Assembly: GCA_900553015.1 (NCBI GenBank)
Contig: USBY01000008.1
Span: 535-64,534 of the forward strand
Direction of reading: 5' to 3'
Length of the DNA: 64,000 nucleotides
From: an uncultured Clostridium sp.
GTDB taxonomy: Bacteria > Bacillota > Clostridia > TANB77 > CAG-508
Shown piece by piece: positions 2,201-61,483 of this stretch. Within the stretch, counting starts at the first letter, position 1. The number at the start of each line of letters is the position of its first letter. Position numbers and translations under genes: made by a program. The notes below the pieces were generated by a model. The model was not told where the DNA came from. It did no database searches and saw only the letters and a program-made list of their open reading frames with translations.

Positions 2201-2300
2201 AATAGGAAAATAGGGAGTATGGAATAGGGAAATAGGGACGTTCCTTAAATCCCTATTCGAAAACAAAAAAGGGAAAAAAAGAACGTCCCCAAATCCCTTA
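2201..2300. repeat. long-form copy of dispersed hairpin repeat (two inverted 33-bp units)
   Basis: Unit ATAGGGAAATAGGGACGTTCCTTAAATCCCTAT at 2224-2256; inverted partner GGGAAAAAAAGAACGTCCCCAAATCCCTTA at 2271-2300. Near-identical to 52055-52140. Confidence 0.85.
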
Positions 2301-2315
2301 GAAAGGAAAAGGTTT

Positions 2316-3353
2316 ATGAAAGAGAAATTAGAAGAAATCAAAACAAAAGGTTTAGAGAAAATTAAAAACGTAAAGACTATCGCTGAACTTGAAGAAGTCA
2401 GAAAAGAATTAACTGGTAAAAAAAGCGGATTATCAGAAGTTTTAAAATCTATGAAAGATTTACCAGTAGAAGAGAAAAAGACAATTGGAATGATGGCAAC
2501 AGAGATAAAAAATACATTTTTAAGTAATTTACAAGAAAAAGAAGAAGAAATAATTGCTTCTATGAGCGTATTAGATGAACCAATTGATTTAACTATTCCT
2601 GGTAAAAAGGTAAGTGGAGGAGCACTTCATCCAATAACTCAAATGAAACATGACTTAAATGATGCATTCTTATCTTTAGGCTTTGAAGTATTCAACGAAG
2701 ATGATATAAGTAGTGAAAAATATGCATTTGATAATTTGAACTTTGCTAAAAACCATCCTGCACGTCAATCTATGGACACATATTGGCTTGAAGGAACAGA
2801 AGATAAAGAAGGTGCAGAAAGATTATGCTTAAGACCACATTTAACAGGTGGTTCTGTAAGATATTTACTAAAACATGGAGCACCAGCAAGATTTGTATAT
2901 CCAGGAGAAGTATATAGAAATGAAACAACTGATGCTAGACATGAAAGAGCATTCTTCCAATATGAAGCATTAATAGTTGATAAAGATATATCTTTTTCAT
3001 CAGGTATGGTTATGATTCAAACAATCTTAGAAAAAGTTTTTGGAAGAAAAATAAAAACAAGAATGAGAGAAGGATTCTTCCCATTTACAGAGCCAGGATA
3101 TGAAATAGATATGGAATGTTTAGTATGTGGGGGAAAAGGATGTAAAGTATGTAATCATAATGGATGGATAGAAGTTATGCCAGGTGGTGTAATTCATCCA
3201 AATGTATTAAAATCAGCAGGATTAGATCCAGACATATGGACAGGATTCTATATTAATATTGGATTAGATAGATTAGTAATGATGAGATATGGAGTAGATG
3301 ATGTACGTTTATTCCATAGTGGAGATTTAAGATTTTTAAAACAATTTAAATAG
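2316..3353 (+). CDS. pheS: phenylalanine--tRNA ligase alpha subunit
   Basis: 345 aa. Class II aaRS motifs (FFPFTEPG, NIGLDRLVMM). Phe T-box upstream and pheT immediately downstream. Confidence 0.97.
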   Translation: MKEKLEEIKTKGLEKIKNVKTIAELEEVRKELTGKKSGLSEVLKSMKDLPVEEKKTIGMMATEIKNTFLSNLQEKEEEIIASMSVLDEPIDLTIPGKKVSGGALHPITQMKHDLNDAFLSLGFEVFNEDDISSEKYAFDNLNFAKNHPARQSMDTYWLEGTEDKEGAERLCLRPHLTGGSVRYLLKHGAPARFVYPGEVYRNETTDARHERAFFQYEALIVDKDISFSSGMVMIQTILEKVFGRKIKTRMREGFFPFTEPGYEIDMECLVCGGKGCKVCNHNGWIEVMPGGVIHPNVLKSAGLDPDIWTGFYINIGLDRLVMMRYGVDDVRLFHSGDLRFLKQFK

Positions 3354-3367
3354 AAAGGATTTTGAAT

Positions 3368-5785
3368 ATGAAAGTATCATTAAATTTAATTAGAAAATAT
3401 GTTGATTTACCTGAAGGTTTAACTGATGAACAAATTGCCTATGATATGACACTTCGAACAGTAGAAGTAGAAGAAGTAGAAAATACTGCAAAGAAGTTTC
3501 ATGACATAGTTGTAGGAGAAATTTTAGAAGTAAAAGAACATCCAAATGCTGATAAATTAAGAATATGTATGGTAGATATTGGAGAAGAAGAACCTGTACA
3601 AATCGTATGTGGTGGTTCTAACCTTTATGTTGGAGAACATGTAGTAGTATCAAAACCAGGAGCAGAAGTTGTTTGGCATGGTCAAGGAGAACCTGTTAAA
3701 ATAACAAAAACAAAAATGAGAGGAGAAAGCTCTTATGGAATGATTTGTGCTTCTACAGAAGTATATTTAAGTGATTTCTTCCCAAATGAAGGTGAAGAAG
3801 AAATAGTTGATTTAAAAGAATTTGATTGCAAGCCAGGAGACAGTGTTGCAGATTTATTTGGAATGAATGATACAGTATTAGAAATAGATAATAAATCTTT
3901 ATCTAATAGACCAGATTTATGGGGACATTATGGAATTGCAAGAGAATTATCAGCTATATATGATGCACCATTAAAAGAATTACCAAAATACGAATTACCT
4001 AAAGTTCCAGAATACAGTGTAGAAATAAAAGATACAACTAAATGTAATAGATATGTAGCTGTAGAAATAGATGGTATATATGAAAAACAATCTCCAATGT
4101 GGATGCAATCATTATTATCAAAAGTAGGTCAAAGACCAATAAATGCTATTGTAGATATTACAAATTATGTAATGATGGCAGTAGGTCAACCACTTCATGC
4201 TTTTGACAAAACACATGTAAGTGGAGAAAAAATAATAGTAAGAAATGCCAAAGAAAATGAAAAATTATTATTATTAGATAATAACTTTATCGAGCTTTCA
4301 ACAGACGATTTAGTAATATGTGATGAAAGTGATGCAATGGCATTAGCAGGAATTAAAGGTGGTAAAAAAGATTCTATTCTACCAGATACAAAAGGAGTTG
4401 TATTAGAAGTAGCAAACTTCTCTGCAGATACAGTTAGACAAACAGATAAAAAATTTGCAGAAAAAACAGAAGCTTCAATGAGATTTGAAAAAGGTGTTGA
4501 TACACAAAGAGTAGATGAAGGATTAAATTTAGCATTAAGATTAATTAAAGAAATATTCCCAGATAGCAAAATAATTAAATATGCAGATGTTTATCCAAAC
4601 GAAACTAAAAAGAATGAAATAAAAGTAAGTGAAAAATTCTTGGATACAAGATTAGGAAAGAAGATACCACAAGAGAAGATTGAACAAATTTTAACAGCTC
4701 TTGGATATGAAATATCATTAAATAATGGAGAATATGATGTAATAGTTCCAACATGGAGATCAACAGGTGACGTTACAATTAAAGATGACGTTATGGGAGA
4801 TATTGCAAGAATACTAAGCTTTGATAGTTTTGAAGCAAAACCAATTACTATAACTTTTGAACATTCTGTAAAACAAAATGATGTTTTACTTGAAAGAAGA
4901 ATTAAAGAATATTTAGCATATAGATGCGGATTTTATGAAATTTTCACATATCCATGGATTGAAGAAAAATATATTAAAGCAGCAGGAATAGATATGGAAA
5001 AATCTTTAAAATTAGCAACTCCACCAGCACCAGATTTAGCATATTTAAGAAGTTCTTTAATACCAGGAATGTTAGAAGCAGTTGCTAAAAACTTAAGATA
5101 CTATGATGAATTTAGATTATTTGATTGTGAAGAAGTTTATGAAAAAGGTGATTATAGACCATCTTCAGAAGATGAAATTTTACCAATTCAAAAGAATTAT
5201 TTAACTGGATGTATAGTTGGAAAAGATGCTAAAGAAATATTCTATGAAGCAAAAGGTGTAATTGAAAATATGGCTGAATACTGCCATATGGAAGAACTTA
5301 AATTAGAAAAAATGGAGAAGCCATATTGGGCAGATGTTAATGCATACTTAAATGTAGTTAAAGGTAATGAAGTAATTGGAACATTAGGATTAGTTTCAGT
5401 TAAAGTAATGGCAGATACTAAAATAAAAAGAACTAATGTAGCAATGTTTGAAATAAATACAGAAAAATTTGTCCCATATGCTTCAAGAACAAATGAATAT
5501 GAAAGACTACCAGAACTACCATTAGTAGAAAAAGACTTATCAATTATAGTTGATGAAGAAATTACATGGAAACAAATTGAAGAAAACATCAAAGCAAAAG
5601 TTAAAGAAATTGAATTTGTAGATGAGTATAGAGGAAATCAAATTCCAGAAGGTAAAAAATCAATTACATTAAAAGTAAAAATACTTAATGAAGGAACAAC
5701 TATGACATCAGAACAAATAAATGAGAAAATGAATAGTATATTAAAAACACTAGACAAGAGATGTGGAGCTAAACTAAGAGATTAA
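3368..5785 (+). CDS. pheT: phenylalanine--tRNA ligase beta subunit
   Basis: ATG 3368 (track ORF starts two codons earlier at TTG 3362). 805 aa with an N-terminal tRNA-binding domain (HPNADKL) and a typical PheT C-terminal region. Confidence 0.97.
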   Translation: MKVSLNLIRKYVDLPEGLTDEQIAYDMTLRTVEVEEVENTAKKFHDIVVGEILEVKEHPNADKLRICMVDIGEEEPVQIVCGGSNLYVGEHVVVSKPGAEVVWHGQGEPVKITKTKMRGESSYGMICASTEVYLSDFFPNEGEEEIVDLKEFDCKPGDSVADLFGMNDTVLEIDNKSLSNRPDLWGHYGIARELSAIYDAPLKELPKYELPKVPEYSVEIKDTTKCNRYVAVEIDGIYEKQSPMWMQSLLSKVGQRPINAIVDITNYVMMAVGQPLHAFDKTHVSGEKIIVRNAKENEKLLLLDNNFIELSTDDLVICDESDAMALAGIKGGKKDSILPDTKGVVLEVANFSADTVRQTDKKFAEKTEASMRFEKGVDTQRVDEGLNLALRLIKEIFPDSKIIKYADVYPNETKKNEIKVSEKFLDTRLGKKIPQEKIEQILTALGYEISLNNGEYDVIVPTWRSTGDVTIKDDVMGDIARILSFDSFEAKPITITFEHSVKQNDVLLERRIKEYLAYRCGFYEIFTYPWIEEKYIKAAGIDMEKSLKLATPPAPDLAYLRSSLIPGMLEAVAKNLRYYDEFRLFDCEEVYEKGDYRPSSEDEILPIQKNYLTGCIVGKDAKEIFYEAKGVIENMAEYCHMEELKLEKMEKPYWADVNAYLNVVKGNEVIGTLGLVSVKVMADTKIKRTNVAMFEINTEKFVPYASRTNEYERLPELPLVEKDLSIIVDEEITWKQIEENIKAKVKEIEFVDEYRGNQIPEGKKSITLKVKILNEGTTMTSEQINEKMNSILKTLDKRCGAKLRD

Positions 5786-5866
5786 TGAAATTTAGGGACG
5801 GAGCTTAAAGTTCATTGGTGGACATAAAATAGAATGCTAAAAATAAAGAACTATATTAAATTATAA

Positions 5867-22627: not shown

Positions 22628-23116
22628 ATGAGATACAATTTAATTAGAAAAATGGATATTTCAAACGGGCCAGGAGTAAGAGTATCTATATTTATGCAAG
22701 GATGTCCTTTCCATTGTAAAAACTGTTTTAACCCTGAAACATGGGATTTCGAAGGGGGAAAAGAATTTACACAAGAAACAATCGATAAGGTACTAGAATT
22801 AAGTGATAAAAACGAAGTAAAAGGTTTATCTATATTAGGTGGGGAGCCAATGGCTCCTACCAACATTGAAGGAACTGCAAAACTTGCTAAAGCATTTAAA
22901 GAAAAATATCCAGAAAAAAATGTATGGGCATGGTCAGGCTATAAATTTGAGCAAATAAAAGATAAAGATGCGTTAAAATATATTGATGTATTAGTAGATG
23001 GAAATTATGAAGATGAATTACATGATCCAACATTAAAATGGAAAGGTTCCTCTAACCAAAGAGTTATAGATGTTCAAAAAAGTTTAAAAAATGGCGGAAT
23101 TAATTTGTTAAAATAA
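22628..23116 (+). CDS. nrdG: anaerobic ribonucleotide reductase activating protein (radical SAM)
   Basis: NGPGVRVSIFMQGCPFHCKNCFN motif; directly follows nrdD. Confidence 0.93.
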   Translation: MRYNLIRKMDISNGPGVRVSIFMQGCPFHCKNCFNPETWDFEGGKEFTQETIDKVLELSDKNEVKGLSILGGEPMAPTNIEGTAKLAKAFKEKYPEKNVWAWSGYKFEQIKDKDALKYIDVLVDGNYEDELHDPTLKWKGSSNQRVIDVQKSLKNGGINLLK

Positions 23117-23120: not shown

Positions 23121-23190
23121 TTCGGGATTTTGGGACGTTCCTCAGGAAGATAGGAAGATAGGGATTTGGGGACGGTCCTAAAATCCCTAT
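23121..23190. repeat. dispersed hairpin repeat, two direct units
   Basis: TTCGGGATTTTGGGACGTTCC ... ATAGGGATTTGGGGACGGTCCTAAAATCCCTAT. Reverse complement closely matches 25137-25198. Confidence 0.85.
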
Positions 23191-23223
23191 TTTGTAAAAA
23201 TTTAAAAATAAGTATATTAAAAA

Positions 23224-24471: not shown

Positions 24472-25128
24472 ATGAGTAAAGAAAATGAGGAAACATTAAA
24501 AATATATGATAGAAAGGCATGTACATACTTAAAGACAAGTATTGCACATGACAATCTTGATCCGGAAAAGGCAAAACGTAAAAGTGAAAAATTGCATAAA
24601 TTTATTACAACTAATATTGGTACATTACCTAAAGGTTCAAAAGTATTTGAATTTGGCTCAGGAGATGGAAAAAATGCAAAATATATAGAAGAGCTAGGAT
24701 ATGATGTAACCGCAAGTGATGTAGCAGAAGATTTTATTAATGCAACTAAATCTACAGGTGTAAAAACTATAAAATTTAATGTTTTAGAGGATAAATTTAA
24801 TGAGAAATATTCAGGAATATTTGCATGGAGAGTATTTGTTCATTTTACAAAAGAAGATGCTTTAACAGTTTTAAAAAAAACGTATGACGCGCTAGAGGAT
24901 AATGGATTATTTGTTTTTAATGTTATGAATCGTGAAGGAAAAGCTGTTGATGAAGAATGGGTGGATTTTCCTAATGAATATCATATGGGAGCAGACCGTT
25001 ATTATAGATACTTTAGCGAAGATGAAATGAATGAAATCATTGCAAAAACAGGATTTAAAATTTCTGAATTTCACACAGAAGGCGGAACCAATAATAACAA
25101 ATGGTTACTATATGTTTTGAAAAAATAA
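24472..25128 (+). CDS. class I SAM-dependent methyltransferase
   Basis: SAM-binding motif I VFEFGSGDGKNA followed by an acidic residue (ASDV). Confidence 0.75.
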   Translation: MSKENEETLKIYDRKACTYLKTSIAHDNLDPEKAKRKSEKLHKFITTNIGTLPKGSKVFEFGSGDGKNAKYIEELGYDVTASDVAEDFINATKSTGVKTIKFNVLEDKFNEKYSGIFAWRVFVHFTKEDALTVLKKTYDALEDNGLFVFNVMNREGKAVDEEWVDFPNEYHMGADRYYRYFSEDEMNEIIAKTGFKISEFHTEGGTNNNKWLLYVLKK

Positions 25129-25136: not shown

Positions 25137-25198
25137 ATAGGGAAAAAAGGAACGTCCCCAAATCCCTATATTTCTTAGGACCGTCCCAAAATCCCGAA
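25137..25198. repeat. dispersed hairpin repeat, inverted relative to 23121-23190
   Basis: ATAGGGAAAAAAGGAACGTCCCCAAATCCCTAT (25137-25169) is the exact reverse complement of 41031-41063. The end GGACCGTCCCAAAATCCCGAA mirrors the start of 23121. Confidence 0.85.
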
Positions 25199-33194: not shown

Positions 33195-33737
33195 ATGCAA
33201 AAAAATATTGGTTCAAAATTAGCATTATATCCAATGCCATTATTAGTAATAGGAACAATGGTAGATGGAAAAGTAAATTGGCTTTTAGCAGGTCATAGTG
33301 GAATTATAGGGCATGACAAGGTTATGGTTAGTTTAGTTAAAACACATTACACAAATAAAGGAATTAAAGACACAAAAACATTATCAATTAATATAGTTGA
33401 TGAAAGTATGCTAAAAAAAGCAGATTATGTTGGAAGTGTAAGCGGTAGCAAAGTAGATAAATCAGAAGTATTTGAATATCACATAGGTGAAGCAGGTGCT
33501 CCAATAATAGATAATGCACCAGTAGTTATGGAATGTAAAGTAGAAGATAATTACGAAACTGAAACTTTTGATAATTTTATAATGTCTATATCAAATACTT
33601 ATGTTCAAGAAGAAAATTTAGATGAAAAAGGAAAAATTGATTATACTAAATTTAGTCCAGTTTTATTTGAATTTCCTAAATATACTTATTTAAGAACAGG
33701 AGATACTATAGGAAATTGTTTAAGATTAGATAAATAA
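33195..33737 (+). CDS. flavin reductase family protein
   Basis: 180 aa, flavin-reductase-like beta barrel (LYPMPLLVIGT...). No anchor. Start is 1 nt after the DUF4405 stop. Confidence 0.7.
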   Translation: MQKNIGSKLALYPMPLLVIGTMVDGKVNWLLAGHSGIIGHDKVMVSLVKTHYTNKGIKDTKTLSINIVDESMLKKADYVGSVSGSKVDKSEVFEYHIGEAGAPIIDNAPVVMECKVEDNYETETFDNFIMSISNTYVQEENLDEKGKIDYTKFSPVLFEFPKYTYLRTGDTIGNCLRLDK

Positions 33738-33760
33738 TTAAATATATGGAGGATAAAATT

Positions 33761-34450
33761 ATGAACAAAAAAGTAGTAGTGTTAATAGTTTTAATATTAG
33801 TAATAGTTATAGCAGGAATAATTATAGGTATTAATTTAGCGGGAAGAAATGAAAATACAAATATAGCAGAAAACAAAACAAACAATGAAAGACAAACAAA
33901 TACAGAGGAAGTAGCACAAGCTACGAATAATGAAACAAATACAGAGATAGCTCAAAACAATGAAGGAAATGGAAGCGGAAAAATATTAGTAGTATATTTT
34001 TCACATACAGGAAATACAGAAACTGTTGCAAACTTTATACATGAAGCAGTTGGAGGAGATATTGTAAAACTAGAAACAGAAGAAGAATATACTGATAATT
34101 ACAATGATTTATTAGATATAGCACAAGAAGAAAAAAATGAAAATGCAAGACCAGCTTTAAAAACAGAAATCTCTAGTATTGATGAATATGATACTATATT
34201 TTTAGGCTATCCAATTTGGTGGGGAGATATGCCAATGGCATTATATACATTTTTAGATGAATATGATTTAAGTGGAAAAACAATAGTACCATTTACTACA
34301 AGTGGAGGCTCTGGACTTTCTGGAACACCTAGTGATATAGGGGATGAAGAGCCAAATGCAACTGTAACAGAAGGATTATCAATAATAGATGACAATGTAG
34401 AAAATTCACAAGATGATGTAAACGAATGGTTATCTGAAATAGGTTTTTAA
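33761..34450 (+). CDS. membrane-anchored flavodoxin
   Basis: ATG 33761 after GGAGGA. Anchor VVVLIVLILVIVIAGIIIGI, N/T/E-rich linker, flavodoxin_4-like ILVVYFSHTGNTE...YPIWWG. Confidence 0.8.
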   Translation: MNKKVVVLIVLILVIVIAGIIIGINLAGRNENTNIAENKTNNERQTNTEEVAQATNNETNTEIAQNNEGNGSGKILVVYFSHTGNTETVANFIHEAVGGDIVKLETEEEYTDNYNDLLDIAQEEKNENARPALKTEISSIDEYDTIFLGYPIWWGDMPMALYTFLDEYDLSGKTIVPFTTSGGSGLSGTPSDIGDEEPNATVTEGLSIIDDNVENSQDDVNEWLSEIGF

Positions 34451-34465
34451 GGAGAATAATATAGT

Positions 34466-35035
34466 ATGAAAAAAGTTATATTAATAATAATTCTATTAAT
34501 AATTATACTCGGTGTTATAGGAACAATAGCATATTTTAATAAAAATGAAAACATTCAAAACAATAATAATTTGGAACAAGAGAGGACAGAGGATAATATA
34601 AATAATGTTATTGAAAATAGTAGTAATGCAAATGATTCTCAAAATTTACAAAATGAGGGAGAAGAAGTAAGTATGGAAAATGCAAGAATAAAATTAACTG
34701 TAGATGGAAATGAAATATTTGTTAGATTAGATGATAATCAAGCAAGTAGAGATTTTTTAGAGATGTTGCCTTTAACTTTAACATTTGAAGACTTTAATAA
34801 TACAGAAAAAATAGCAACTTTACCAAATAAATTATCAACAGAAGATTTACCTTCAGGATATACACCACAAGTTGGAGATTTTTCATATTATGCACCTTGG
34901 GGAAATATATCAGTATTTTATAAAGATTTTAGATATTCTAATTCTTTATATAAGTTAGGAACAATAGAAGCCGGTACTGAAATATTAGGAAATTTAAATA
35001 ATGATTTTGAAGTAACTATTGAAAGAGTTAATTAG
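34466..35035 (+). CDS. membrane-anchored cyclophilin-like fold protein
   Basis: Anchor VILIIILLIIILGVIGTIAYF. C-terminal IKLTVDGNEIFVRLDDNQAS..NTEKIATL..GDFSYYAPWGNISVFY. Paralog of 13431. Confidence 0.75.
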   Translation: MKKVILIIILLIIILGVIGTIAYFNKNENIQNNNNLEQERTEDNINNVIENSSNANDSQNLQNEGEEVSMENARIKLTVDGNEIFVRLDDNQASRDFLEMLPLTLTFEDFNNTEKIATLPNKLSTEDLPSGYTPQVGDFSYYAPWGNISVFYKDFRYSNSLYKLGTIEAGTEILGNLNNDFEVTIERVN

Positions 35036-35089
35036 AAATATTATTATTATGTTTAAATTAATTTAAAATATAAAAAAGGAGGTCTTATT

Positions 35090-35386
35090 ATGAGTTTTAC
35101 AATTAATATTTATTATACAGGAGAAAACGGAAGTGCAAAAAAATTTGCAAAAGAAATGGTAGAAAAGGGAGTAGTAGAAAGAGTAAGAGCTGAAAAAGGT
35201 AATCAAAAATATGAATATTTCTTCCCAATGGATGATCCAGAAACTGTTTTATTAATAGATAGATGGGAAAATCAAGAAGCTTTAGATGCACATCATAAAT
35301 CTCCAATGATGAAAGAAATTGCAGATTTAAGAGATAAATATCATCTTCATATGAGAGTAGAACAATTTGTAGAAAGAAAAATATGA
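35090..35386 (+). CDS. antibiotic-biosynthesis-monooxygenase (ABM) family / putative quinol monooxygenase
   Basis: 98 aa ferredoxin-like fold pattern; WENQEALDAHHKSPMM is the typical ABM motif. Confidence 0.75.
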   Translation: MSFTINIYYTGENGSAKKFAKEMVEKGVVERVRAEKGNQKYEYFFPMDDPETVLLIDRWENQEALDAHHKSPMMKEIADLRDKYHLHMRVEQFVERKI

Positions 35387-35414
35387 AGAGCTAACTCTAA
35401 CTGAGTTAGCTCTT
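35386..35414. terminator. bidirectional hairpin between convergent genes
   Basis: Perfect 12-bp stem AAGAGCTAACTC / GAGTTAGCTCTT. Confidence 0.7.
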
Positions 35415-35454
35415 CAATTTGCAAAAATTCATTGAATCTTTGCCTGTTTTTTTC

Positions 35455-36081
35455 CTATACAAATTCTTTTTTGGGAAGTATCATATCTGAAGCGTCCCAC
35501 AGAATAATACAATGTTCGGGATTCAAGTCTATTTCTTTCCCTACATTGAATTGGACTGCTGCTTCTTCCGGTTCCCAGTATTTCTGCTTCAATATGCAGA
35601 TTTCATCCCAAGTAGGCCATTTATCTCCTCCAAATATAATTAGTTTATTATCCTTAAAAATGACCTTTTTTTCTTGAGAATAATATTTTCTTTTAGCATC
35701 TGCATATGCTTGTTTAATTCTTTCTACTAATTTCCTTTCAGCTTTTGCATAGACAGCTCTATATCTCCATAGATGTAAGGAGAATATTTCAATATTTACA
35801 TATTGTGATTTTGCAGGATGTACCTGCATTGCAACTTCATCTTGTTCCCAAAACAATTCTTTTAAGCTTACCATTTCTTCATAAGTTGGTAGCCTATGTT
35901 TGGGATTGAGCATTACATGCTCAAAATCATCATCTTTAAAGTTGATAGCCGAAATAGTGGCTGTTTTAGTAATGCTAGGAAGTAAAAATTCGGAACGCTG
36001 AGACGATGAAATTCCCATTTCCCGAATAATAGATTCTTCTGAAGTATTGTGTTCTAATTGAATTGTTCTTAAATCTTTCAT
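35455..36081 (-). CDS. hypothetical protein with an internally duplicated ~45-aa domain
   Basis: Own promoter and the shared terminator. Two related segments (LPTYEEMVSLKELFWEQDEVAMQ...LHLW and WPTWDEICILKQKYWEPEEAAVQ...IILW). Locally higher G+C. Confidence 0.6.
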   Translation of the reverse strand: MKDLRTIQLEHNTSEESIIREMGISSSQRSEFLLPSITKTATISAINFKDDDFEHVMLNPKHRLPTYEEMVSLKELFWEQDEVAMQVHPAKSQYVNIEIFSLHLWRYRAVYAKAERKLVERIKQAYADAKRKYYSQEKKVIFKDNKLIIFGGDKWPTWDEICILKQKYWEPEEAAVQFNVGKEIDLNPEHCIILWDASDMILPKKEFV

Positions 36082-36137
36082 TTTGCAAAATCCTTTCTTA
36101 TTTTTAATATAGGAATATAACGTAACTTCAAGTATAT

Positions 36138-36167
36138 ATTATATCAGGAAAATTGTATTTATGTCAA
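36138..36167 (-). promoter_or_regulatory. sigma-A type promoter for 35455-36081
   Basis: On the minus strand: TTGACA, 18 nt, TATAAT. Confidence 0.6.
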
Positions 36168-36205
36168 CAAAAGCAAATCTATAAAATTCTATCTGATAAA
36201 ATATT

Positions 36206-36243
36206 AAAAAAAAGATGGAGCCTAATTTACTTTGAATTAGGCT
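36206..36243 (-). terminator. rho-independent terminator after 36244-36822
   Basis: AGCCTAAT / ATTAGGCT stem next to the stop, followed on the minus strand by T8. Confidence 0.7.
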
Positions 36244-36822
36244 TTATATACTTTCTACAATTTTTTTTGCTTCTTCATAACCTTCCAAATCACTTAATTT
36301 AAGATTTTCAAAATCAGCATATATCTTATTTTTATAACAATAAATATCTATTGGAATTTTTATAATTTTATTAATCGGATAAGATTGAGAATTTAATAAT
36401 AATGTTAATATTTTATATGCATTATTATCTTTTAATTTATATACATTTATAAATTTTTCTTTATATAAAATTGTAATATAATATAGTTTATAACAACTTC
36501 TTCCATGGCAACTAAATCCCGTATTAATAACATAACCTGTATTTTTTTTACCAATTTCTTTTAAATATTTATTTTCTTTATTATTTTTTGGTGCAAAGTA
36601 CATAGTTAATGCCATAATTCCTAAAATAGCGCTGTATGAAAATGCAATAATCAGTGTTAATACGATAAAATTCTTATTATTTGCAATTAAAGCTAATATA
36701 GTAAAAATAATCATACCAATTAACCAAAGTGCAAATAAAAAATACTTTAATTTTTTATTTGTGAAAATATCGTTAGACTCTAATTCTTGTAATTTATATA
36801 ATTCTTCCATATTTTTCTCCAA
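36244..36822 (-). CDS. hypothetical membrane protein
   Basis: Two to three N-terminal TM helices, then a ~100-aa soluble tail (GYVINTGFSCHGRSCYKLYY). Confidence 0.5.
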   Translation of the reverse strand: MEKNMEELYKLQELESNDIFTNKKLKYFLFALWLIGMIIFTILALIANNKNFIVLTLIIAFSYSAILGIMALTMYFAPKNNKENKYLKEIGKKNTGYVINTGFSCHGRSCYKLYYITILYKEKFINVYKLKDNNAYKILTLLLNSQSYPINKIIKIPIDIYCYKNKIYADFENLKLSDLEGYEEAKKIVESI

Positions 36823-36965
36823 TTTTTTATTTCCTTTTTATTCATTATAAATCAGTTAAATTAAAAAATAAAGAAAATAAAAATATATAATCATTCGATT
36901 AGTTGTTATCTGGATATTTTTATGTTATCATGATGAATAAGTTGAATAAAAGGAGAGAGCTTTAC

Positions 36966-37499
36966 ATGATATATGTAGCAAACTATAAATCACCTATTGG
37001 AAATCTTTTAATTGCAAGTAAAAATAACAAATTAATAGGTTTATGGATTGAGGGACAAAATATTACTTCTCGAATTTTAAAGATGAAGTTCAACAATTAG
37101 ACAATAATATTTTATTAGATACAAAAAAATGGTTGGATAAATATTTTAATAAAGAAAAGCCCAGTATAAATGATTTAGAAATAAATCTTATAGGTAGTAA
37201 GTTTAGAAAAGAAGTTTGGAAAATATTATGTACAATTCCGTACGGAAAAGTCATTACATATAATGATATTTCTAAACAAATTGCACATAATAGAGGAATA
37301 AATAAAATGTCCGCACAAGCAATAGGAGGAGCGGTTGGTCATAATCCAATTTCTATAATTATTCCATGTCATAGAGTTGTTGGTTCTAATGGAAATTTAA
37401 CCGGATATGCCGGAGGAATAGATAAAAATATACTTACTAAAGCATGAAGAAGTTGATATGGAAAATTTGTTTTTTCCAAGAAAGGGGATTGCTTTATGA
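36966..37499 (+). pseudogene. ogt: methylated-DNA--protein-cysteine methyltransferase with two frameshifts
   Basis: Three frames carry consecutive Ogt parts: SPIGNLLI..LWIEGQ (stop 37098-37100); YYFSNFKDE..IPCHRVVGSNG (active-site PCHR); IYLLKHEEVDMENLFFP ending TGA 37497-37499. Shifts lie near A4 37057-37060 (one nt missing) and A5 37424-37428 (one nt extra). Confidence 0.75.
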
Positions 37500-38044
37500 A
37501 TAAAAAAAGATGTAAATGGTGTAATTTAAAAAATGAGTTATATGTAAAATATCATGATGAAGAATGGTGCAAGCCAAACTTTGATGACAAGTATTTATTT
37601 GAAATGTTGATATTAGAATCCTTTCAGGCTGGACTATCTTGGGAATGCATATTAAATAAAAGAAAAGAATTTGAAAAAGCATATGATAACTTTGATTTAA
37701 ATAAAGTTTGTAATTATGATAATAAAAAGATAGAAGAATTAATAGAAAATAAAGGAATTGTAAGGAACAAATTAAAAATAAATGCTAGTGTGAATAATGC
37801 TAAAATATTTAGAAATATAAAAAGAGAATATGGAAGTTTTTATAATTATTTAAAAACATTTACGAATGGAGAAATAATCTTTGAAACAGGAAAAACTACT
37901 AATGAGCTGTCAGATACAATTTCAAAAGATTTGAAGAAAAGAGGAATGAAGTTTGTAGGAAGTACAATTATTTATTCGTACCTACAAGCCATTGGAATTA
38001 TTGATTCACACGACAAAGAGTGCTATTTATATTCGAAAAATTAA
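37496..38044 (+). CDS. tag: DNA-3-methyladenine glycosylase I
   Basis: RCKWC..YHDEEWC zinc motif, FEMLILESFQAGLSW, GMKFVGSTIIYSYLQAIG. Confidence 0.9.
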   Translation: MNKKRCKWCNLKNELYVKYHDEEWCKPNFDDKYLFEMLILESFQAGLSWECILNKRKEFEKAYDNFDLNKVCNYDNKKIEELIENKGIVRNKLKINASVNNAKIFRNIKREYGSFYNYLKTFTNGEIIFETGKTTNELSDTISKDLKKRGMKFVGSTIIYSYLQAIGIIDSHDKECYLYSKN

Positions 38045-38131
38045 CATTGATTAATAAAATATTAAATTATATAAAGTAAAAAAGCCTTACTACATTAATA
38101 GTGAGGTTTTATTAGTTATATTAAAAAAAGC

Positions 38132-38162
38132 TGTAACCTTTTTTAAAAAAATGGAACTATAA
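38132..38162 (+). promoter_or_regulatory. candidate ECF-type promoter of sigma gene 38199
   Basis: TGTAAC, 17 nt, AACTATAA; parallels 5919-5949. Confidence 0.5.
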
Positions 38163-38198
38163 TAGTGAAAGTACTTTTACAAGGAGTTTAGATCTAAA

Positions 38199-38744
38199 TT
38201 GGAAAATGAAACAATAGCATTTTATGAAGAAAAAGGAATATTAAATTTAGAAAAAATAATTAATAAATACAATTCTTATATTTATACTATATTACGAAAC
38301 AGTATATCTAATGAATCAGATATCGAAGAAATGTTATCAGATGTGTTTTTTGTATTCTGGAAAAACTATAAAAGATTAGATGATAAGACAGAAATAAAGA
38401 AATATTTAGCAGGAATCACAAAAAACTTAATAAAAAAGAAATACAGAAATTCTAATTTGAATATTGAGAATATTGAATTATATGAAAATAATATATTTGA
38501 CAATATCAATCTTGAAGAATTAGTTGAAAATAACGAAAAATCTAAAGTGATTTCTTTTACATTAGAAAATATTAAAAAAACCGATAAAGATGTATTTATA
38601 ATGTTTTATTATAATCAACAGAAAATTAAGGATATTTCAAAGTTACTAAATATATCAGAAGCAAAAGTAAAAATAATTTTATATAGAACAAGAAAGTTAA
38701 TAAAGAAAAATTTAAAAGAAAGAGGGTATAGCTATGGAAAATAA
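38199..38744 (+). CDS. ECF-type RNA polymerase sigma factor (paralog of 5994-6521)
   Basis: TTG start directly after the same 16-nt GGAGTTTAGATCTAAA as the paralog. LEKIINKYNSYIY, YLAGITKNLIKK, C-terminal HTH. Confidence 0.8.
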   Translation: MENETIAFYEEKGILNLEKIINKYNSYIYTILRNSISNESDIEEMLSDVFFVFWKNYKRLDDKTEIKKYLAGITKNLIKKKYRNSNLNIENIELYENNIFDNINLEELVENNEKSKVISFTLENIKKTDKDVFIMFYYNQQKIKDISKLLNISEAKVKIILYRTRKLIKKNLKERGYSYGK

Positions 38745-39165
38745 TGAATTAAATAGAAAAGTTCTTGAAAAAGTAAGAAACAGAATAGTTATATCTAATT
38801 TGGAAAGTGAGGAGAATATGAAATTAAATAAGAAAAAGCAAATTATATCAATAGCTGCAGTTTTAGTTGTATTATTTACAGGAAGCTTTATTACTGTAAA
38901 TGCAGCTACAGATGGAGAATTAGTAGATAAAGTAACAAATACAATTAAAGTTATATTTGTTAAGGATGATGGAACGGAAAACGAAGTAAAAGGAACAACA
39001 TATACTGATTCAAACAATCATACAATAGAAAAATATGAAGTTGAAGATAATAACACTAAACATATAGTAGAAGTAGATAAAAACAATTTAGATAAAGATA
39101 ATATGACTATTAATGCAACTATAAATGATGATGAAGCTGGTATTATAATTGATAAGCAAAAATAA
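38734..39165 (+). CDS. putative anti-sigma factor, short single-pass membrane protein
   Basis: Overlaps the sigma gene by 11 nt. N-terminus LEKVRNRIVISN like the 6523 paralog. TM helix IISIAAVLVVLFTGSFITV. Confidence 0.6.
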   Translation: MENNELNRKVLEKVRNRIVISNLESEENMKLNKKKQIISIAAVLVVLFTGSFITVNAATDGELVDKVTNTIKVIFVKDDGTENEVKGTTYTDSNNHTIEKYEVEDNNTKHIVEVDKNNLDKDNMTINATINDDEAGIIIDKQK

Positions 39166-39180
39166 AGAAGATATTAAATA

Positions 39181-39211
39181 AGTGGACATAATAGTAGTCC
39201 ACTTATTTTTT
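39181..39211 (+). terminator. rho-independent terminator after anti-sigma gene
   Basis: AGTGGAC / GTCCACT stem followed by a T-run. Confidence 0.75.
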
Positions 39212-39316: not shown

Positions 39317-41029
39317 ATGAGCAAAGATATTTTAGAAGTAAGAGATTTAAAAGATATGTTAAACAAAACAAAAAATTTATATGCAGACAGACCATGTTAT
39401 ACAATTAAGACTGAAGAAGGAGAATATAAATCTTATACACATAGTGAAGTAAGAGACATGATTGATTACCTTGGTACAGCATTAATTAGTTTAGGTTTAA
39501 AAGATAAGAGAATTGCTGTTATAGGAGAAAATAGATATGAATGGGAACTTGCATATTTATCAGTAGCATGTGGTACAGGTATTGTAGTTCCTTTAGATAA
39601 ATCATTACCTGCAAATGAATTAGAAGATTTAATAGAAAGATCAGAAGTTGAAGCAATTTTTTATACAAAGAAATATCAAGAGACAGTAGAAAAAATAAAA
39701 TATAATGAAAAAAATAAATTAAAGCACTTAATTTCTATGGATTCAGATATACACAAAGAAGGAATTTATTCTCAAAAAGAATTAATAGAAAAAGGAAAAG
39801 AATTAGTAGAAGCAGGAAATAGAGAATTTATTGATGCAAAAATAGATCCAGAAGTAATGGACATAATGTTATTTACATCAGGAACAACATCAAGATCTAA
39901 AGTTGTAGCACTATCACATAAAAATTTAGTTTCTAATTTAATGGATTGTGCTCATGTAATAGATTTAGATTCTACTGATAGAGTATTATCATTTTTACCA
40001 TTACATCATGTTTTTGAATGTACAGTAGGTATGTTACTTTCATTATATTTAGGAGCAAATAGATTTTTCTGTACAGGAATGAGACATATAGTAGAAAATT
40101 TAAATGAATATAAAATAACATTTACATCTTTTGTACCAGCTATTTATGAAGCAATGCATAAAAATATTTTAAAGACTCTTGAAAAACAAGGTAAACTTGA
40201 AGCAGTTAGAAAACTTATGGAAGCAAATAAAGATAAAACTATGGCAGAAAAGAAAGAAATATTCCAAGATATTCATAATATATTTGGTGGAAATATAAAG
40301 ATGTATATAAGTGGAGCAGCAGCATTAGATAAAGAAGTAGAGGAAGATTTTAGAGCTTGGGGAATTAATTTATGTCAAGGATATGGATTAACAGAAACAT
40401 CTCCAGTTATTGGTGTAGAATATAGAGATAACTTTAGAGTTGGTTCAATAGGTCAAGCACTTCCACATATTCAAGCAAGAATAGATGATGCAAATGATGA
40501 AGGAATGGGAGAACTTGTTGTAAAAGGACCAAATGTAATGCTTGGATATTACAATGATGAAGAAGCAACAAAAGAAGTTATGGAAGATGGTTGGTTCCAC
40601 ACAGGTGATTTAGCAAAAATAGATGAAGATGGATATATCTTTATTTGTGGAAGAAAGAAAAGTGTAATAGTACTTAAAAATGGTAAAAATATATTCCCAG
40701 AAGAAATGGAAGCATTAGTAAATAAAATAGAAGGTGTAAAAGAATCATTTATTTTCGGAAAACAACAATCAGATGATAAAGATGATATAAAAATAAATGT
40801 AAAAATAATATTTGATAGAGAAGTAATGAAAGAAGCATATAAAGTAGAGACAGATGAAGAAATCTATAAAGTTTTAGCAGATAAGATAAAAGAAATAAAC
40901 CAAATAATGCCAAAATATAAAGCAATAAGAGGAATATTAATTTCAGAAGAACCATTAATAAAAACAACAACAAGCAAAATCAAGAGACAAGCAAATCTAG
41001 AAGTAATAGAAAAAGAAAGCAGAGATTAG
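39317..41029 (+). CDS. long-chain fatty acid--CoA ligase (AMP-binding enzyme)
   Basis: AMP-binding motifs FTSGTTSRSK, GYGLTET, GWFHTGD, GRKKS. Confidence 0.88.
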   Translation: MSKDILEVRDLKDMLNKTKNLYADRPCYTIKTEEGEYKSYTHSEVRDMIDYLGTALISLGLKDKRIAVIGENRYEWELAYLSVACGTGIVVPLDKSLPANELEDLIERSEVEAIFYTKKYQETVEKIKYNEKNKLKHLISMDSDIHKEGIYSQKELIEKGKELVEAGNREFIDAKIDPEVMDIMLFTSGTTSRSKVVALSHKNLVSNLMDCAHVIDLDSTDRVLSFLPLHHVFECTVGMLLSLYLGANRFFCTGMRHIVENLNEYKITFTSFVPAIYEAMHKNILKTLEKQGKLEAVRKLMEANKDKTMAEKKEIFQDIHNIFGGNIKMYISGAAALDKEVEEDFRAWGINLCQGYGLTETSPVIGVEYRDNFRVGSIGQALPHIQARIDDANDEGMGELVVKGPNVMLGYYNDEEATKEVMEDGWFHTGDLAKIDEDGYIFICGRKKSVIVLKNGKNIFPEEMEALVNKIEGVKESFIFGKQQSDDKDDIKINVKIIFDREVMKEAYKVETDEEIYKVLADKIKEINQIMPKYKAIRGILISEEPLIKTTTSKIKRQANLEVIEKESRD

Positions 41030-41030
41030 G

Positions 41031-41063
41031 ATAGGGATTTGGGGACGTTCCTTTTTTCCCTAT
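41031..41063. repeat. single 33-bp unit of the dispersed hairpin repeat
   Basis: ATAGGGATTTGGGGACGTTCCTTTTTTCCCTAT, starting 1 nt after the stop codon. Exact reverse complement of 25137-25169. Confidence 0.9.
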
Positions 41064-51856: not shown

Positions 51857-52051
51857 ATGGATATAAATTTATTATTTAAAATAGCAGCAATAGGAATTTT
51901 AGTAGCGGTACTATACCAAGTATTAGTACGAGCAGGGCGAGAAGACCAAGCTATGATGACAACACTTGCAGGTCTAATTATTGTATTAACAATGGTAATA
52001 AAGGAAATAAGTACACTGTTTGGCAGTGTTAGAACAATGTTTAACCTATAG
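51857..52051 (+). CDS. spoIIIAC: stage III sporulation protein AC
   Basis: 64 aa, two TM helices, FKIAAIGILVAVL..GREDQA motif. Confidence 0.9.
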   Translation: MDINLLFKIAAIGILVAVLYQVLVRAGREDQAMMTTLAGLIIVLTMVIKEISTLFGSVRTMFNL

Positions 52052-52054
52052 AAA

Positions 52055-52140
52055 AATAGGAAAATAGGGAAATAGGGACGGTCCTTAAATCCCTATTCGA
52101 TACAAAAAAGGGAAAAAAGGAACGTCCCCAAATCCCTAAA
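52055..52140. repeat. long-form copy of the dispersed hairpin repeat inside the spoIIIA operon
   Basis: Unit at 52064-52096 (ATAGGGAAATAGGGACGGTCCTTAAATCCCTAT) plus inverted partner at 52110-52139. Fills most of the spoIIIAC-spoIIIAD gap. Confidence 0.9.
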
Positions 52141-57126: not shown

Positions 57127-58269
57127 ATGATTAAAAAAGTAGCAATTTTAGCAAATGGTGGAGATGTTTCAGGTTTTAATGCTGTTATAAGAGCAATTAA
57201 AAAGACTTGTGAAACAAATGGAATTGAATGTTATGGTTATATTGATGGATACAGAGGTCTTGTAAACAATAATTACATTCGTTTAGATGGAAACGAAAAA
57301 GCTTCTGGTATTTTAACAAAAGGAGGTTCTATTATAGGTTCTTCAACAAATGCTATAGTATTCCATTATAAAGTAGAACATGAAGATGGAACAGTTACTT
57401 ACGAAGATTTATCAGACCAATGTGTAAGAAATGTAAAAGAAGCAGGATTTGACTGTGTATTTACATTAGGTGGAGATAGTACACAAAAATCTGCAAGAGA
57501 CTTATATTTAAAAGGAATTAACACAATAGGTGTTCCAAAAACAATAGATAATGATGTTGCTTGTACAGATGTTACATTTGGATATAATACAGCTGTTCAT
57601 GTTGCAACAGAAGCTTTAGATAGATTACATACAACTGCAGAAACACATGACAGAATAATGGTACTAGAAGTTATGGGTAGATTTGCTGGTTGGATAGCTT
57701 TAGAGTCTGCTATTTCTGGAGGTGCAGATGTTGCTTTAATACCAGAGATTCCATATGACATAAATAAAGCAGCTGCAGCAATTAATAAAAGAAAAGAAAA
57801 CGGAAAAAGATTTAGCGTTGTTGTTGTATCAGAAGGAGCTCATCCAATAAATGAAGAACAAACAACACATGAAGCAGAAGGCATAGATAATAAAGCTGGA
57901 ATAAGTGTAAAATTTGGCGGAGAAGGAAATAGAGTTGCAAAAGAACTAAAAGAATTAACTGGTTTAGATTCTAGATGTACAATTTTAGGATACATGCAAA
58001 GAGGCGGAACTCCAACAGCATATGATAGAGTTTTATCTACAAAATATGGTGCAAAAGCAATGGAACTTGCAATGGAAGGAAAATTTGGAGTTTTAACAGT
58101 TATCAAAAATGGAAAATTAGATTGTGTTCCATTAGAAGTTGTTGTTGGTGAAAACAAAGAGATTGGTGCTGTTCAAGGTGGTACAGCAGAAAGTAACGTA
58201 AGATATGTTACAATGGACGATGATTTAGTAAAAACAGCAAGAGATATTGGAATTTGTTTAGGTGACTAA
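57127..58269 (+). CDS. pfkA: 6-phosphofructokinase
   Basis: GGDVSGFNA, LGGDST, GVPKTIDNDV, EVMGR, MQRGG motifs. Confidence 0.88.
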   Translation: MIKKVAILANGGDVSGFNAVIRAIKKTCETNGIECYGYIDGYRGLVNNNYIRLDGNEKASGILTKGGSIIGSSTNAIVFHYKVEHEDGTVTYEDLSDQCVRNVKEAGFDCVFTLGGDSTQKSARDLYLKGINTIGVPKTIDNDVACTDVTFGYNTAVHVATEALDRLHTTAETHDRIMVLEVMGRFAGWIALESAISGGADVALIPEIPYDINKAAAAINKRKENGKRFSVVVVSEGAHPINEEQTTHEAEGIDNKAGISVKFGGEGNRVAKELKELTGLDSRCTILGYMQRGGTPTAYDRVLSTKYGAKAMELAMEGKFGVLTVIKNGKLDCVPLEVVVGENKEIGAVQGGTAESNVRYVTMDDDLVKTARDIGICLGD

Positions 58270-58287
58270 TTTAAAAATTAATTTAAG

Positions 58288-59537: not shown

Positions 59538-59629
59538 AACAATACAAAACTCTTAAATCTATAAAGAAAATTTGAAAATACTATAAAGTAGTGATATAAT
59601 TTATTAAAAATTTATAGGAGGTATATGTT

Positions 59630-59767: not shown

Positions 59768-59773
59768 CATACA

Positions 59774-59816
59774 ATAGGGTTGTAGCATATCAATGATGCT
59801 ATAATCCTATTTTTTT
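59774..59816 (+). terminator. rho-independent terminator after the small basic ORF
   Basis: ATAGGGTTGTAGCAT / ATGCTATAATCCTAT stem (two G-U) followed by T7. Confidence 0.7.
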
Positions 59817-59888
59817 GTCAAAAATAATGTTATTAAATTATATTAAACTGGAAATACTTATATAAATTATAAAATGGAGGTAGACATT

Positions 59889-61442
59889 ATGAAAATATAT
59901 ATAAATGGGGATTTTATAACTCTGGAAAATGACAATATAGGAGCGATTGCAACAGAAAATGATAAAATTATAAAAACAGGATCTAAAGATGAAATAATAA
60001 AATTAGCAGATGATAATACAGAGATAATAGATTTAAAAGGGAATACATTGATGCCATCATTTATAGATGCTCATAGCCATATATTTGCGTTAGCTAAAAG
60101 TTTAATGCAGATATCCATAGATGGGTTAACTAGTACAGAAGAAATTAAGAATTGCCTAGCCAAATATAAAAAAGAGAATAGAACAAATGAATGGATTATA
60201 GTAAATGGTTATGATAATAACATATTAAATAATAGAAAACATATTACTAAACAAGAATTAGATGAAATATTTCCAGATACTCCTGTTATTATAGAAAATA
60301 AATCTAGACATAATGGTATTGCAAATAGTAAAGCATTAGAAAAATTAGGCATAACAAAAACAACAGCAGCCCCAGAAGGTGGAAGAATTATTTTTGATAC
60401 AGGATTATTAGAAGAAAATGCATTTATTGATTCTCTTAAAAAGATACCTCTTCCAAAAATAGATGAAATTATGAATGCGTTTAAAAAAGCACAAGAAATA
60501 TATGCATCACATGGAATAACTATGGCACAAGAAGGTGTTATTACAAACGAATTAGCAAAAATATACAAGTTATTGGCAGATAAGCATGAAATATTTCTTG
60601 ATATAGTTGCATACATGGATTACAAAAATGTGGATGAAATAAAGAAGGAATATAGTGAATTTATTAATAAATATAACAATAATTTTAAAATAGGTGGAAT
60701 AAAAATATTTTTAGATGGTTCACCACAGGCAAAGACTGCATGGTTAAGAGAAGCGTATATAAATGAACCAGAATATTATGGATATAGAATAATGAAAGAT
60801 GAAGAGGTAGAAGAAATATTAGAAAATAGTAAAGAAAGCAATTTGCAAATATTAGCTCATTGTAATGGTGATAAAGCAGCAGAACAATATATAAATGCAA
60901 TTAAAAAGGTATCAGGATTAAAAAGACCAGTTATGATACATGCACAGCTCTTAGGTTTAGACCAATTACCTTATGTAAAAAAATATAATATAATACCTTC
61001 ATTCTTTATAAGCCATATATATTATTTTGGAGATATTCATATAAAAAACTTAGGAATGAAACGTGCAGAACATATTAGTCCAGCAGGTTCAACTCTTAAA
61101 CAAAATATATTATTTACTTTTCATCAAGATACACCTGTTATAGAACCAGATATGTTCGAAACAATTTGGTGTGCTGTAAATAGAAGAACAAGAGCTGGTA
61201 AAGTACTAGGAGAAGATGAGAAAATTTCTGTATTAGAAGCCATAAAAGCTGTTACGATAAATGCTGCATATCAATATGGCGAAGAAGAAATAAGAGGAAG
61301 TTTAAAAGCTGGAAAGAAAGCAGATTTAATTATTGTAGACAAAAATCCATTAAAGGTTGCAAAAGATGAACTGCGAAATATAAAGATTTTACAAACAATA
61401 AAGAATGGTAAAGTGATTTGGAAAAATTCTTTGGGATATTAG
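59889..61442 (+). CDS. amidohydrolase family protein (metal-dependent hydrolase)
   Basis: ATG 59889 after GGAGG. PSFIDAHSH metal-binding motif, HCNGD, HQD, C-terminal GSLKAGKKADLIIVD. Confidence 0.82.
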   Translation: MKIYINGDFITLENDNIGAIATENDKIIKTGSKDEIIKLADDNTEIIDLKGNTLMPSFIDAHSHIFALAKSLMQISIDGLTSTEEIKNCLAKYKKENRTNEWIIVNGYDNNILNNRKHITKQELDEIFPDTPVIIENKSRHNGIANSKALEKLGITKTTAAPEGGRIIFDTGLLEENAFIDSLKKIPLPKIDEIMNAFKKAQEIYASHGITMAQEGVITNELAKIYKLLADKHEIFLDIVAYMDYKNVDEIKKEYSEFINKYNNNFKIGGIKIFLDGSPQAKTAWLREAYINEPEYYGYRIMKDEEVEEILENSKESNLQILAHCNGDKAAEQYINAIKKVSGLKRPVMIHAQLLGLDQLPYVKKYNIIPSFFISHIYYFGDIHIKNLGMKRAEHISPAGSTLKQNILFTFHQDTPVIEPDMFETIWCAVNRRTRAGKVLGEDEKISVLEAIKAVTINAAYQYGEEEIRGSLKAGKKADLIIVDKNPLKVAKDELRNIKILQTIKNGKVIWKNSLGY

Positions 61443-61483
61443 TGCGTTCCTTGGGAATTTGGGGACGTTCCTTAAATCCCGAT
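61443..61483. repeat. copy of the dispersed hairpin repeat directly after a stop codon
   Basis: GCGTTCCTTGGGAATTTGGGGACGTTCCTTAAATCCCGA followed by T7. Confidence 0.8.

Follow-up and report, generated by a model that had tools for sequence, protein, structure and literature searches.

A 33-bp hairpin-forming repeat recurs at six intergenic loci in a 64,000-nucleotide stretch of DNA (hereafter the window: positions 535 to 64,534 of contig USBY01000008.1, assembly GCA_900553015.1) from an uncultured species of human-gut Clostridia whose genome measures about 1.7 Mb, with a GC content of 27%. We consider it very likely that these repeats make up a family of repetitive extragenic palindromes (REPs) with a partner REP-associated tyrosine transposase (RAYT). 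The family occurs as single units, as inverted pairs resembling REP doublets forming hairpins (REPINs), as dimers of a half and a full unit and, in relatives, as mosaics of the kind known as bacterial interspersed mosaic elements (BIMEs).

The consensus unit, ATAGGGATTTGGGGACGKTCCTWWWWTCCCTAT, is a 33-bp imperfect palindrome able to form a hairpin. Its outer stem pairs ATAGGGA with TCCCTAT over 7 bp, variants with TTT/AAA reach 10 bp, and the loop starts with GGGGACG(G/T). When folded with DNA parameters, an apical mini-stem of GGA/TCC closes a CGK triloop and the variable T/G base is therefore left unpaired; the fold energies of the units range from -3 to -9 kcal/mol. A preliminary description of the window had reported ten copies of the core at six intergenic loci, and this count holds. 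With at most one mismatch allowed, GGGACGKTCC matches ten times (2235+, 2280-, 23132+, 23169+, 25149-, 25178-, 41042+, 52075+, 52119- and 61462+), where 0.20 matches are expected by chance and no more than 2 were reached in any of 100 shuffles, and all copies are intergenic according to the list of open reading frames (ORFs). GGGACG at 35493(-) lies within an ORF, forms no hairpin and was dismissed as a chance match. An nhmmer profile built from 64 units, all taken from genomes other than that of the window, recovered eight full and two half units at the same six loci and nothing else of significance in the whole window.

Some of these copies are nearly or fully identical. Reverse-complementing the 33-mer at 41031-41063 gives exactly 25137-25169, as had been noted from the letters, and the copy at 52107-52139 differs from the 33-mer by 2 nt. 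Half units keep the 5' arm and the core up to about GGGACGKTCCT and have no 3' arm. Each half unit is followed by a full one, so that 23121-23190 and 25137-25198 are one and the same half-plus-full composite in opposite orientations; their inverted match spans 44 nt and is 82% complementary. Across the 64 units of the profile, 82% of the stem cells are paired, a share that falls to 68% or 54% when the 3' partners are shifted by one column, which supports the register of the stem. Rfam gave no match in the window at gathering scores, and at E <= 0.5 it returned only a T-box at 1966-2162 and one chance match, with none at the repeats. The repeat is thus a sequence family without a name, as the preliminary description had supposed, with neither an Rfam match nor a description in the literature found; the kind of system is known.

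The search for a transposase started from genes bracketed by inverted units. At locus L100 such a gene (270-1058), flanked by units at 84-116(+) and 1071-1104(-), encodes a 262-aa protein that matches Pfam Y1_Tnp with 40 bits (cut-off 23) and has REP_Tyr_transpos, the REP-associated tyrosine transposase, as its best NCBIfam match (E 2e-18). Partial homologues adjoin a unit upstream (L008) or downstream (L063), and a protein search retrieved 613 relatives of about 256 aa, all with PF01797. In an alignment of 35 sequences, H61 and H63 of the HUH motif (NH[AV]H) and Y121 (YIHxNPVKA) are invariant, the Y motif across the proteins being YIH[NEKQR]NP. A 'YSS' motif follows the catalytic tyrosine, with S141 invariant and S142 present in at least 90% of the sequences. 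The proteins are 254-268 aa long, and an extension of about 100 aa at the C-terminus ends in a conserved 'ILGIGKNRI' resembling a helix-turn-helix (HTH); residues 183-260 are modeled as helical, with a weak match of the sigma-70 region-4 type. An AlphaFold (AF2) model with a pLDDT of 82 is most similar to 4ER8_A (E 2.9e-7, TM 0.72), the E. coli TnpA_REP bound to its REP hairpin, followed by the ISDra2 and IS608 TnpA structures, and 4ER8 is also the sole PDB match at the sequence level.

A RAYT-type transposase, which the preliminary description had suggested looking for elsewhere in the genome, is encoded in the species of the window itself, a common one in metagenomes of the human gut. The window is 100% identical to the human-gut metagenome contigs L107 (20.6 kb) and L196 (3.4 kb), and its spoIIIA region has a counterpart of 98.9% identity on the 1,722,723-bp contig CAXVQW010064035.1. 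By listing the members of RAYT protein clusters we found that this contig encodes P0256, a 256-aa protein 59% identical to that of L100, with TTAGGGATTTGGGGACGTTCTTTAAATCCCTAA upstream of its gene and an inverted unit downstream. The gene lies between a gene for a 56-aa ferredoxin and one for a 101-aa winged helix-turn-helix (wHTH) protein. The order ferredoxin, RAYT, wHTH is shared by L100 and L220, with the ferredoxin side preserved in L008 and the wHTH side in L063, and the RAYT gene is found once per contig examined.

Some further observations concern the surroundings of the transposase gene. The small wHTH gene directly past it in L100 (1123-1429), L063 and L220 (4855-5160) has homologues at 70% identity within the replication module of a prophage (L213, 3001-3327). 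It was considered as a synteny marker for RAYT and dropped, given that the homologue detected on a 1.7-Mb contig belongs to such a module. For some members of the RAYT clusters the sources give the label Caudoviricetes. Directly past the upstream RAYT-proximal unit, an inverted fragment, TTTTAAAGAACGT, is common to three species (L100 121-137, L008 and L220 3845-3860) and is complementary to the right part of the loop together with some of the arm.

When metagenomes were scanned with the protein alignment, 80 loci were returned; among those with sufficient flank on either side, 51 could be evaluated. GGGAC(G/A) upstream with its complement downstream was present at 42 of these 51 RAYT loci, on one side only at six and on neither side at three. 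The motif lies 1-2 nt past the 5' arm, in a loop mostly 11-15 nt long, and reads GGGACG in 66% and GGGACA in 34% of the flanking units. The arms themselves differ wholly between loci (GGGATTT, TGAACTTT, GTGATCCTTTTT, ATTGCCA, TGGAAAC, AGACAA, ATGTCA and others) and are still complementary: 60% of the units have a perfect stem of 6 bp or more, compared with 5.7% in shuffles, and the 41 distinct arms include all four Watson-Crick pair types at every stem position. Because the arms vary and remain complementary around a fixed motif, what is conserved is a hairpin whose loop motif is fixed.

Copies in close relatives are widespread. When species-representative genomes were searched with a degenerate 18-nt core, more than 104 stretches matched. 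Among the matches listed, about 75 low-GC (24-31%) loci from about 30 species-level metagenome-assembled genomes (MAGs) carry the whole hairpin, and scattered high-GC matches show no hairpin; the counts of units outside ORFs, near stop codons and by orientation given next refer to these low-GC loci. The MAGs are named 'uncultured Clostridia' or 'Clostridium sp.' and come from human, chicken, rabbit and other guts. Although ORFs make up 85.6% of the DNA, 161 of the 179 units lie outside them. Of 99 units scored for it, 42 start within 10 nt of a stop codon, and co-directional gaps hold 69 units in sense and 42 in antisense orientation. Other species show singles, inverted pairs, half-plus-full dimers and nested mosaics. 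Units of type A (GGGACGTTCC) and type B (GGGACAcTCC) are nested as A-B...B'-A' in L016, L017, L072 and L003, which is a BIME-like organization. Phage contigs yielded one bona fide unit (L223); the other six matches on them are chance matches in DNA of higher GC content.

Orthologous sites differ between species in being filled or empty. In L098 and L102, two units follow the gene whose end in the window is at 58269; at that place the window has an ordinary terminator hairpin and no unit. The gap between spoIIIAC and spoIIIAD holds an inverted pair in the window, and no unit in L056. Within the species, strains L195 and L201, whose flanks are 96-99% identical to those of the window (98-99% for L201), have a different, non-alignable REP arrangement in this gap. 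Past nrdG, L034 (81% identical) has a canonical terminator and one unit, and the window has the half-plus-full composite.

Two structural differences between strains were also seen. In L207, from the same species, an element of the IS200 type (1870-2334) is located upstream of the REP cluster at pheS, just upstream of window position ~2180. It encodes a 154-aa Y1_Tnp with a Y...Q motif, has end hairpins of its own and replaces the 146-aa gene and T-box region of the other strains. As the mobilizing enzyme it was discarded on account of its Y...Q motif, its unrelated end hairpins and its absence from other strains. In strain L110, window positions 33737-39202 (~5.5 kb) are missing and about 330 nt of different sequence stand there instead; this indel is not bordered by REP units.

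Within the window, the genes next to the copies bear the names they had been given, according to Pfam matches to PheS/PheT, NrdD/NrdG, a TehB-type methyltransferase, an AMP-binding ligase, SpoIIIAC/AD and an amidohydrolase. The proposed inverted pairs are likewise full units on both arms by nhmmer. The pair at pheS comprises a left arm at 2224-2256 (+; E 2e-11; DNA hairpin of -5.9 kcal/mol) and a right arm at 2268-2300 (-; E 3e-08) with one core mismatch (GGGACGTTCT), forming a REPIN-like doublet located between the T-box terminator and the pheS start codon. The pheST T-box leader at 1966-2162 (+) matches RF00230 over its full length with 77.2 bits (E 5.6e-15), which falls short of the gathering score of 93, so that a default Rfam scan misses it; its position upstream places the pair within the transcribed 5' untranslated region (UTR) of pheST. 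The second pair lies between spoIIIAC, which ends at 52051, and spoIIIAD inside the spoIIIA operon (52064-52096, +, and 52107-52139, -).

The locus past nrdG (23121-23190) had been described as a direct pair. Its repeats are indeed direct, but they are not two full units: a half unit at 23121-23142 (+; 5' arm plus GGGACGTTCCT; profile positions 3-24, E 4e-05), 4 nt past the nrdG stop at 23116, precedes a full unit with a 10-bp stem at 23158-23190 (+; E 5e-13; DNA fold of -8.8 kcal/mol) that is followed by TTTTG. The composite in the other orientation consists of a full unit at 25137-25169 (-), 8 nt past the methyltransferase stop at 25128, and a half unit at 25175-25198 (-; profile positions 3-26) whose end abuts the ribosome-binding site of gene 25208. 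Between 23121 and 25198, these inverted composites bracket a block of three genes (an AAA-type kinase, a hydrolase and the methyltransferase). A lone full unit is found at 41031-41063 (+), 1 nt past the stop of the AMP-binding ligase at 41029. Past the amidohydrolase gene, which ends at 61442, a full unit at 61451-61483 (+; E 1e-10) is preceded by a degenerate half unit at about 61430-61450 and runs into T7.

Ahead of the 5' arm of full units there are one to three extra TAGGRA-like repeats with an 8-nt period, for example TAGGAAAA, TAGGGAAA and TAGGGACG; in the window they are seen at 2201-2240, 23143-23175, 41021-41048 and 52049-52080. They may represent binding repeats of the iteron kind or traces left by insertions at the same place.

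The window also contains a second family. The degenerate seventh copy of the core that had been placed at 5793-5810 does not belong to the family described above: 5786-5816 (+), directly past the pheT stop, is a single unit of a sister REP family, TGAAATTTAGGGACGGAGCTTAAAGTTCA, with a GAACTT/AAGTTC stem. It differs by about three substitutions and one missing A from the TGAACTTTAGGGACGGACCTTAAAAGTTCA units of the GAACTT-stem family that flank P0098, a second RAYT, in L113, the closest relative found. A further repeat type with the same core adjoins window-type units in L098 (~840-960), where GACCAATGGGGACGTTGTTAAATTGGTTGAA and its inverse are separated by about 60 nt; this suggests that several REP families coexist in one genome. 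In L142 and L143, a head-to-tail array of four to five repeats with a 26-nt period, each containing GGGACGGTCC, lies 142-245 nt past a RAYT-like ORF. That ORF is short, its match covering query residues 1-144 only, and the array differs from the hairpin layout seen elsewhere.

With regard to transcription, T4 follows the unit ending at 23190 and T7 the one ending at 61483, and no T tract follows the copies ahead of pheS, spoIIIAD or gene 25208; in this the preliminary description was accurate. Folded as RNA, the 3' end of nrdG reaches -32.3 kcal/mol and is followed by UAUUUUG, and that of the amidohydrolase gene reaches -20.0 kcal/mol and is followed by AU7, both of them terminator-like. The pairs in the pheS leader (-28.5 kcal/mol) and in the spoIIIAC/AD gap (-38.2 kcal/mol) have no T tract. 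The layout of an intrinsic terminator is hence found at two of the six window loci (23158-23196 and 61451-61490), the others being without a T tract, and it is plausible that 23158-23190 serves as intrinsic terminator for nrdDG and 61451-61483 for the amidohydrolase gene.

A mechanism can be proposed by analogy with the Y1/HUH enzymes E. coli TnpA_REP and IS608 TnpA (PMC6006769, PMC3733652). With the HUH and tyrosine residues invariant and a predicted fold matching 4ER8, RAYT would bind and cleave the repeat in single-stranded form. It would probably recognize the hairpin in single-stranded DNA, for instance at a replication fork, and carry out cleavage and rejoining inside the conserved motif or adjacent to it. 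Units or doublets would in this way be copied into new intergenic sites, very often about 10 nt or less from a stop codon, and once inserted they would be transcribed as stable RNA hairpins. Those with a T tract (23158-23196 and 61451-61490) would probably act as intrinsic terminators, and those in operons or 5' UTRs (pheS, spoIIIAC/AD, 25208) are probably either neutral or structures that stabilize or process the mRNA.

Several points weigh against a REP family mobilized by this RAYT. No transposition or cleavage was observed, and we infer catalysis from the protein. The NCBIfam RAYT score of 66.7 bits is below the curated cut-off of 80. The foot of the hairpin lacks the canonical GT[AG]G and is variable, reading ATAG, TTAG, TCGG or AAGG. 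Covariation within the family is not significant, as 59 of 500 shuffles reach the score observed for the 64 units, and the support for the hairpin is therefore drawn mainly from the comparison between families. Strains of at least 99% average nucleotide identity (ANI) differ at the pheS, nrdG and methyltransferase sites by single-nucleotide polymorphisms only, with no presence/absence polymorphism, so that any current activity must be slow. A figure of about 270 units per genome is an extrapolation only, from ten units in 64 kb. Finally, T runs past the last unit are present in 3 of 17 operon-internal, 15 of 41 long co-directional and 11 of 24 convergent gaps, an enrichment at the ends of transcription units that is a trend only.

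One rival reading is that the hairpins are primarily cis-acting RNA elements of the host, namely terminators or structures stabilizing or processing mRNA, which were multiplied by selection and have only an incidental link to the transposase. Units placed right past stop codons, the two window copies running into T4 or T7, the replacement of the window's ordinary terminator by units in L098 and L102, RNA hairpins of -20 to -38 kcal/mol and sites that are stable among strains would all suit such elements. Selection for termination does not, however, account for the recurrence of almost identical 33-mers at loci unrelated to one another and across about 30 species, and it leaves unexplained the invariant GGGACR loop motif, the use of both orientations (69 sense, 42 antisense), the T-tract-less copies in a 5' UTR and the spoIIIA operon, and the consistent bracketing of the RAYT gene, the T-tract link being a trend only. 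We regard this explanation as unlikely; a function as RNA element is best seen as a secondary, exapted role and not as the origin of the family.

It is considerably less probable still that the units are operators of a regulon, bound as duplex palindromes by the HTH-like part of RAYT or by the neighboring wHTH protein. The unit is almost perfectly palindromic, with a GGAC.GTCC-like element inside, and RAYT does possess a helical, HTH-like C-terminal domain, but most copies are found 3' of genes, directly past stop codons, and not in promoter regions, and the genes they flank (nrdG, pheS, spoIIIA, amidohydrolase, ligase) are functionally unrelated. Arrays, half units, nested mosaics and variable presence at orthologous sites also speak against operators, and the compensatory stem changes between RAYT clades indicate that the hairpin and not the duplex sequence is conserved. 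The slimmest chance is given to the inverted pairs being miniature inverted-repeat transposable elements (MITEs), that is, non-autonomous derivatives of DDE-type insertion sequences mobilized in trans via terminal inverted repeats. Pairs of about 75-150 bp with inverted ends exist, and an IS200-type element stands beside the pheS cluster in L207. No target-site duplication is visible, though, at the flanks of the window pairs 2224-2300 and 52064-52139, single 33-bp units and half units are common, and the interiors of the pairs are not conserved. No insertion sequence with matching ends was seen, the end hairpins of the L207 IS200 being unrelated, and RAYT is the only gene consistently bracketed by units. 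Of the 'REP/BIME- or MITE-like' behavior named in the preliminary description, the former is thus upheld by the relatives, the mosaics, the site differences and the RAYT, and the latter is not, with neither target-site duplications nor a matching DDE insertion sequence. We contend that a REP family with a RAYT partner remains the best explanation of the repeats.

REP-RAYT systems have so far been characterized almost only in Proteobacteria and Cyanobacteria. No REP family of Firmicutes is listed in one survey (PMC3733652), no REPs are reported for the largest RAYT-like class, that with a C-terminal HTH (PMC6006769), and in the literature we found neither a description of this repeat family nor a mention of REPINs or RAYTs in Firmicutes. 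What is new here is an abundant REP family together with its transposase in a lineage of uncultured human-gut Clostridia with small genomes, and a rule that holds across dozens of transposase loci, a variable stem with a loop starting with GGGACR. Judging from sequence, the unit and its RAYT would offer a concrete substrate-enzyme pair for biochemistry, and the units could serve as markers to type strains in metagenomic data. The hairpins may also explain the contig breaks around RAYT genes, given that many contigs carrying such a gene measure only about 1 kb. Strong hairpins in essential transcripts, such as the pheST leader and the spoIIIA operon, may affect expression.

In comparison with known systems, there is a close general resemblance to the REP/BIME and RAYT systems of E. 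coli and Pseudomonas, with their REPtrons and REPINs (Ton-Hoang 2012; Bertels & Rainey 2011), as outlined in PMC6006769 and PMC5581495. Shared features are short extragenic imperfect palindromes occurring as singles, inverted doublets and mosaics, mainly 3' of genes, and a single-copy Y1/HUH transposase bracketed by its own repeats, with a hairpin sequence specific to the transposase clade; the predicted fold, moreover, best matches that of E. coli TnpA_REP (4ER8). The present system differs in that GT[AG]G is missing from the foot and (G)GGGAC(G/A) lies instead at the 5' side of a loop of 11-15 nt, that the transposase is about 100 aa longer with a helical, HTH-like C-terminal domain, and that the host is a low-GC Firmicute and not a proteobacterium. 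CGTC-tagged REPs were considered, as the core holds CGTC, and rejected: in that class the tag is terminal and the repeats are without a transposase (PMC3733652). The IS200/IS605 elements (IS608, ISDra2), which rank second among the structural matches, have in common with our system a Y1/HUH enzyme and imperfect hairpins presumably acting in single-stranded DNA. Unlike in these elements, the RAYT gene occurs once on each contig examined and at a conserved chromosomal position, has Y...NP and not Y...Q, lacks tnpB, and is accompanied by hairpins that are dispersed alone and are not the ends of a gene-carrying mobile element; the genuine IS200 in L207 likewise has hairpins different from the REP unit.

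Closest among published descriptions is that of TIRYTs, RAYT-like genes that form TIRtrons with flanking inverted repeats sharing GGGGWSAS, some of these repeats being moderately abundant families in dimers or clusters (Di Nocera et al. 2013, PMC3733652). TIRYT has been equated with TnpA_Y1 subclass 2.1, a subclass marked by a C-terminal HTH and an SS motif and reported to show no REP-like structure (Quentin et al. 2018, PMC6006769), and also with group 1 of Bertels' RAYTs, which occurs in Clostridia and has flanking 16-mers in about 12 copies only (PMC5581495). The proteins described here share with TIRYT a RAYT-like architecture of about 240-260 aa, a C-terminal extension of the HTH type and 'SS' after the catalytic tyrosine. 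Type-B units (GGGGACAC, GGGGACAG) fit GGGGWSAS exactly, as do GGGACA flanking units where S follows, whereas the GGGACG units, including the main ones with GGGGACG(G/T), depart from it at position 7 with G for A. In contrast to subclass 2.1 as described by Quentin et al., the flanking repeats here are clear hairpins with co-varying stems. The Y motif, YIH[NEKQ]NP against Y[IV]HLNP or YIELNP in subclass 2.1, looks nearer to subclass 2.6, and the HUH motif is NH[AV]H against a subclass 2.1 signature of NHVH/NH[YF]H. Given the missing GTAG foot and the C-terminal helical extension of the transposase, we take this to be a TIRYT-like REP/BIME-RAYT system. It is possible, if rather doubtful, that a distinct REP class is widespread in gut, rumen and termite Clostridia, in which the transposase recognizes (G)GGGAC(G/A) in the loop, the stem is free to vary and the partners are long, HTH-bearing RAYT-like proteins (TIRYT, similar to subclass 2.1). 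On this reading, the half units that recur and end just past GGGACGKTCCT could be footprints of cleavage and rejoining within the loop. The layout of such a class, with its motif in the loop, would be nearer to the origins cut by rolling-circle Rep proteins than to GTAG-footed REPs.

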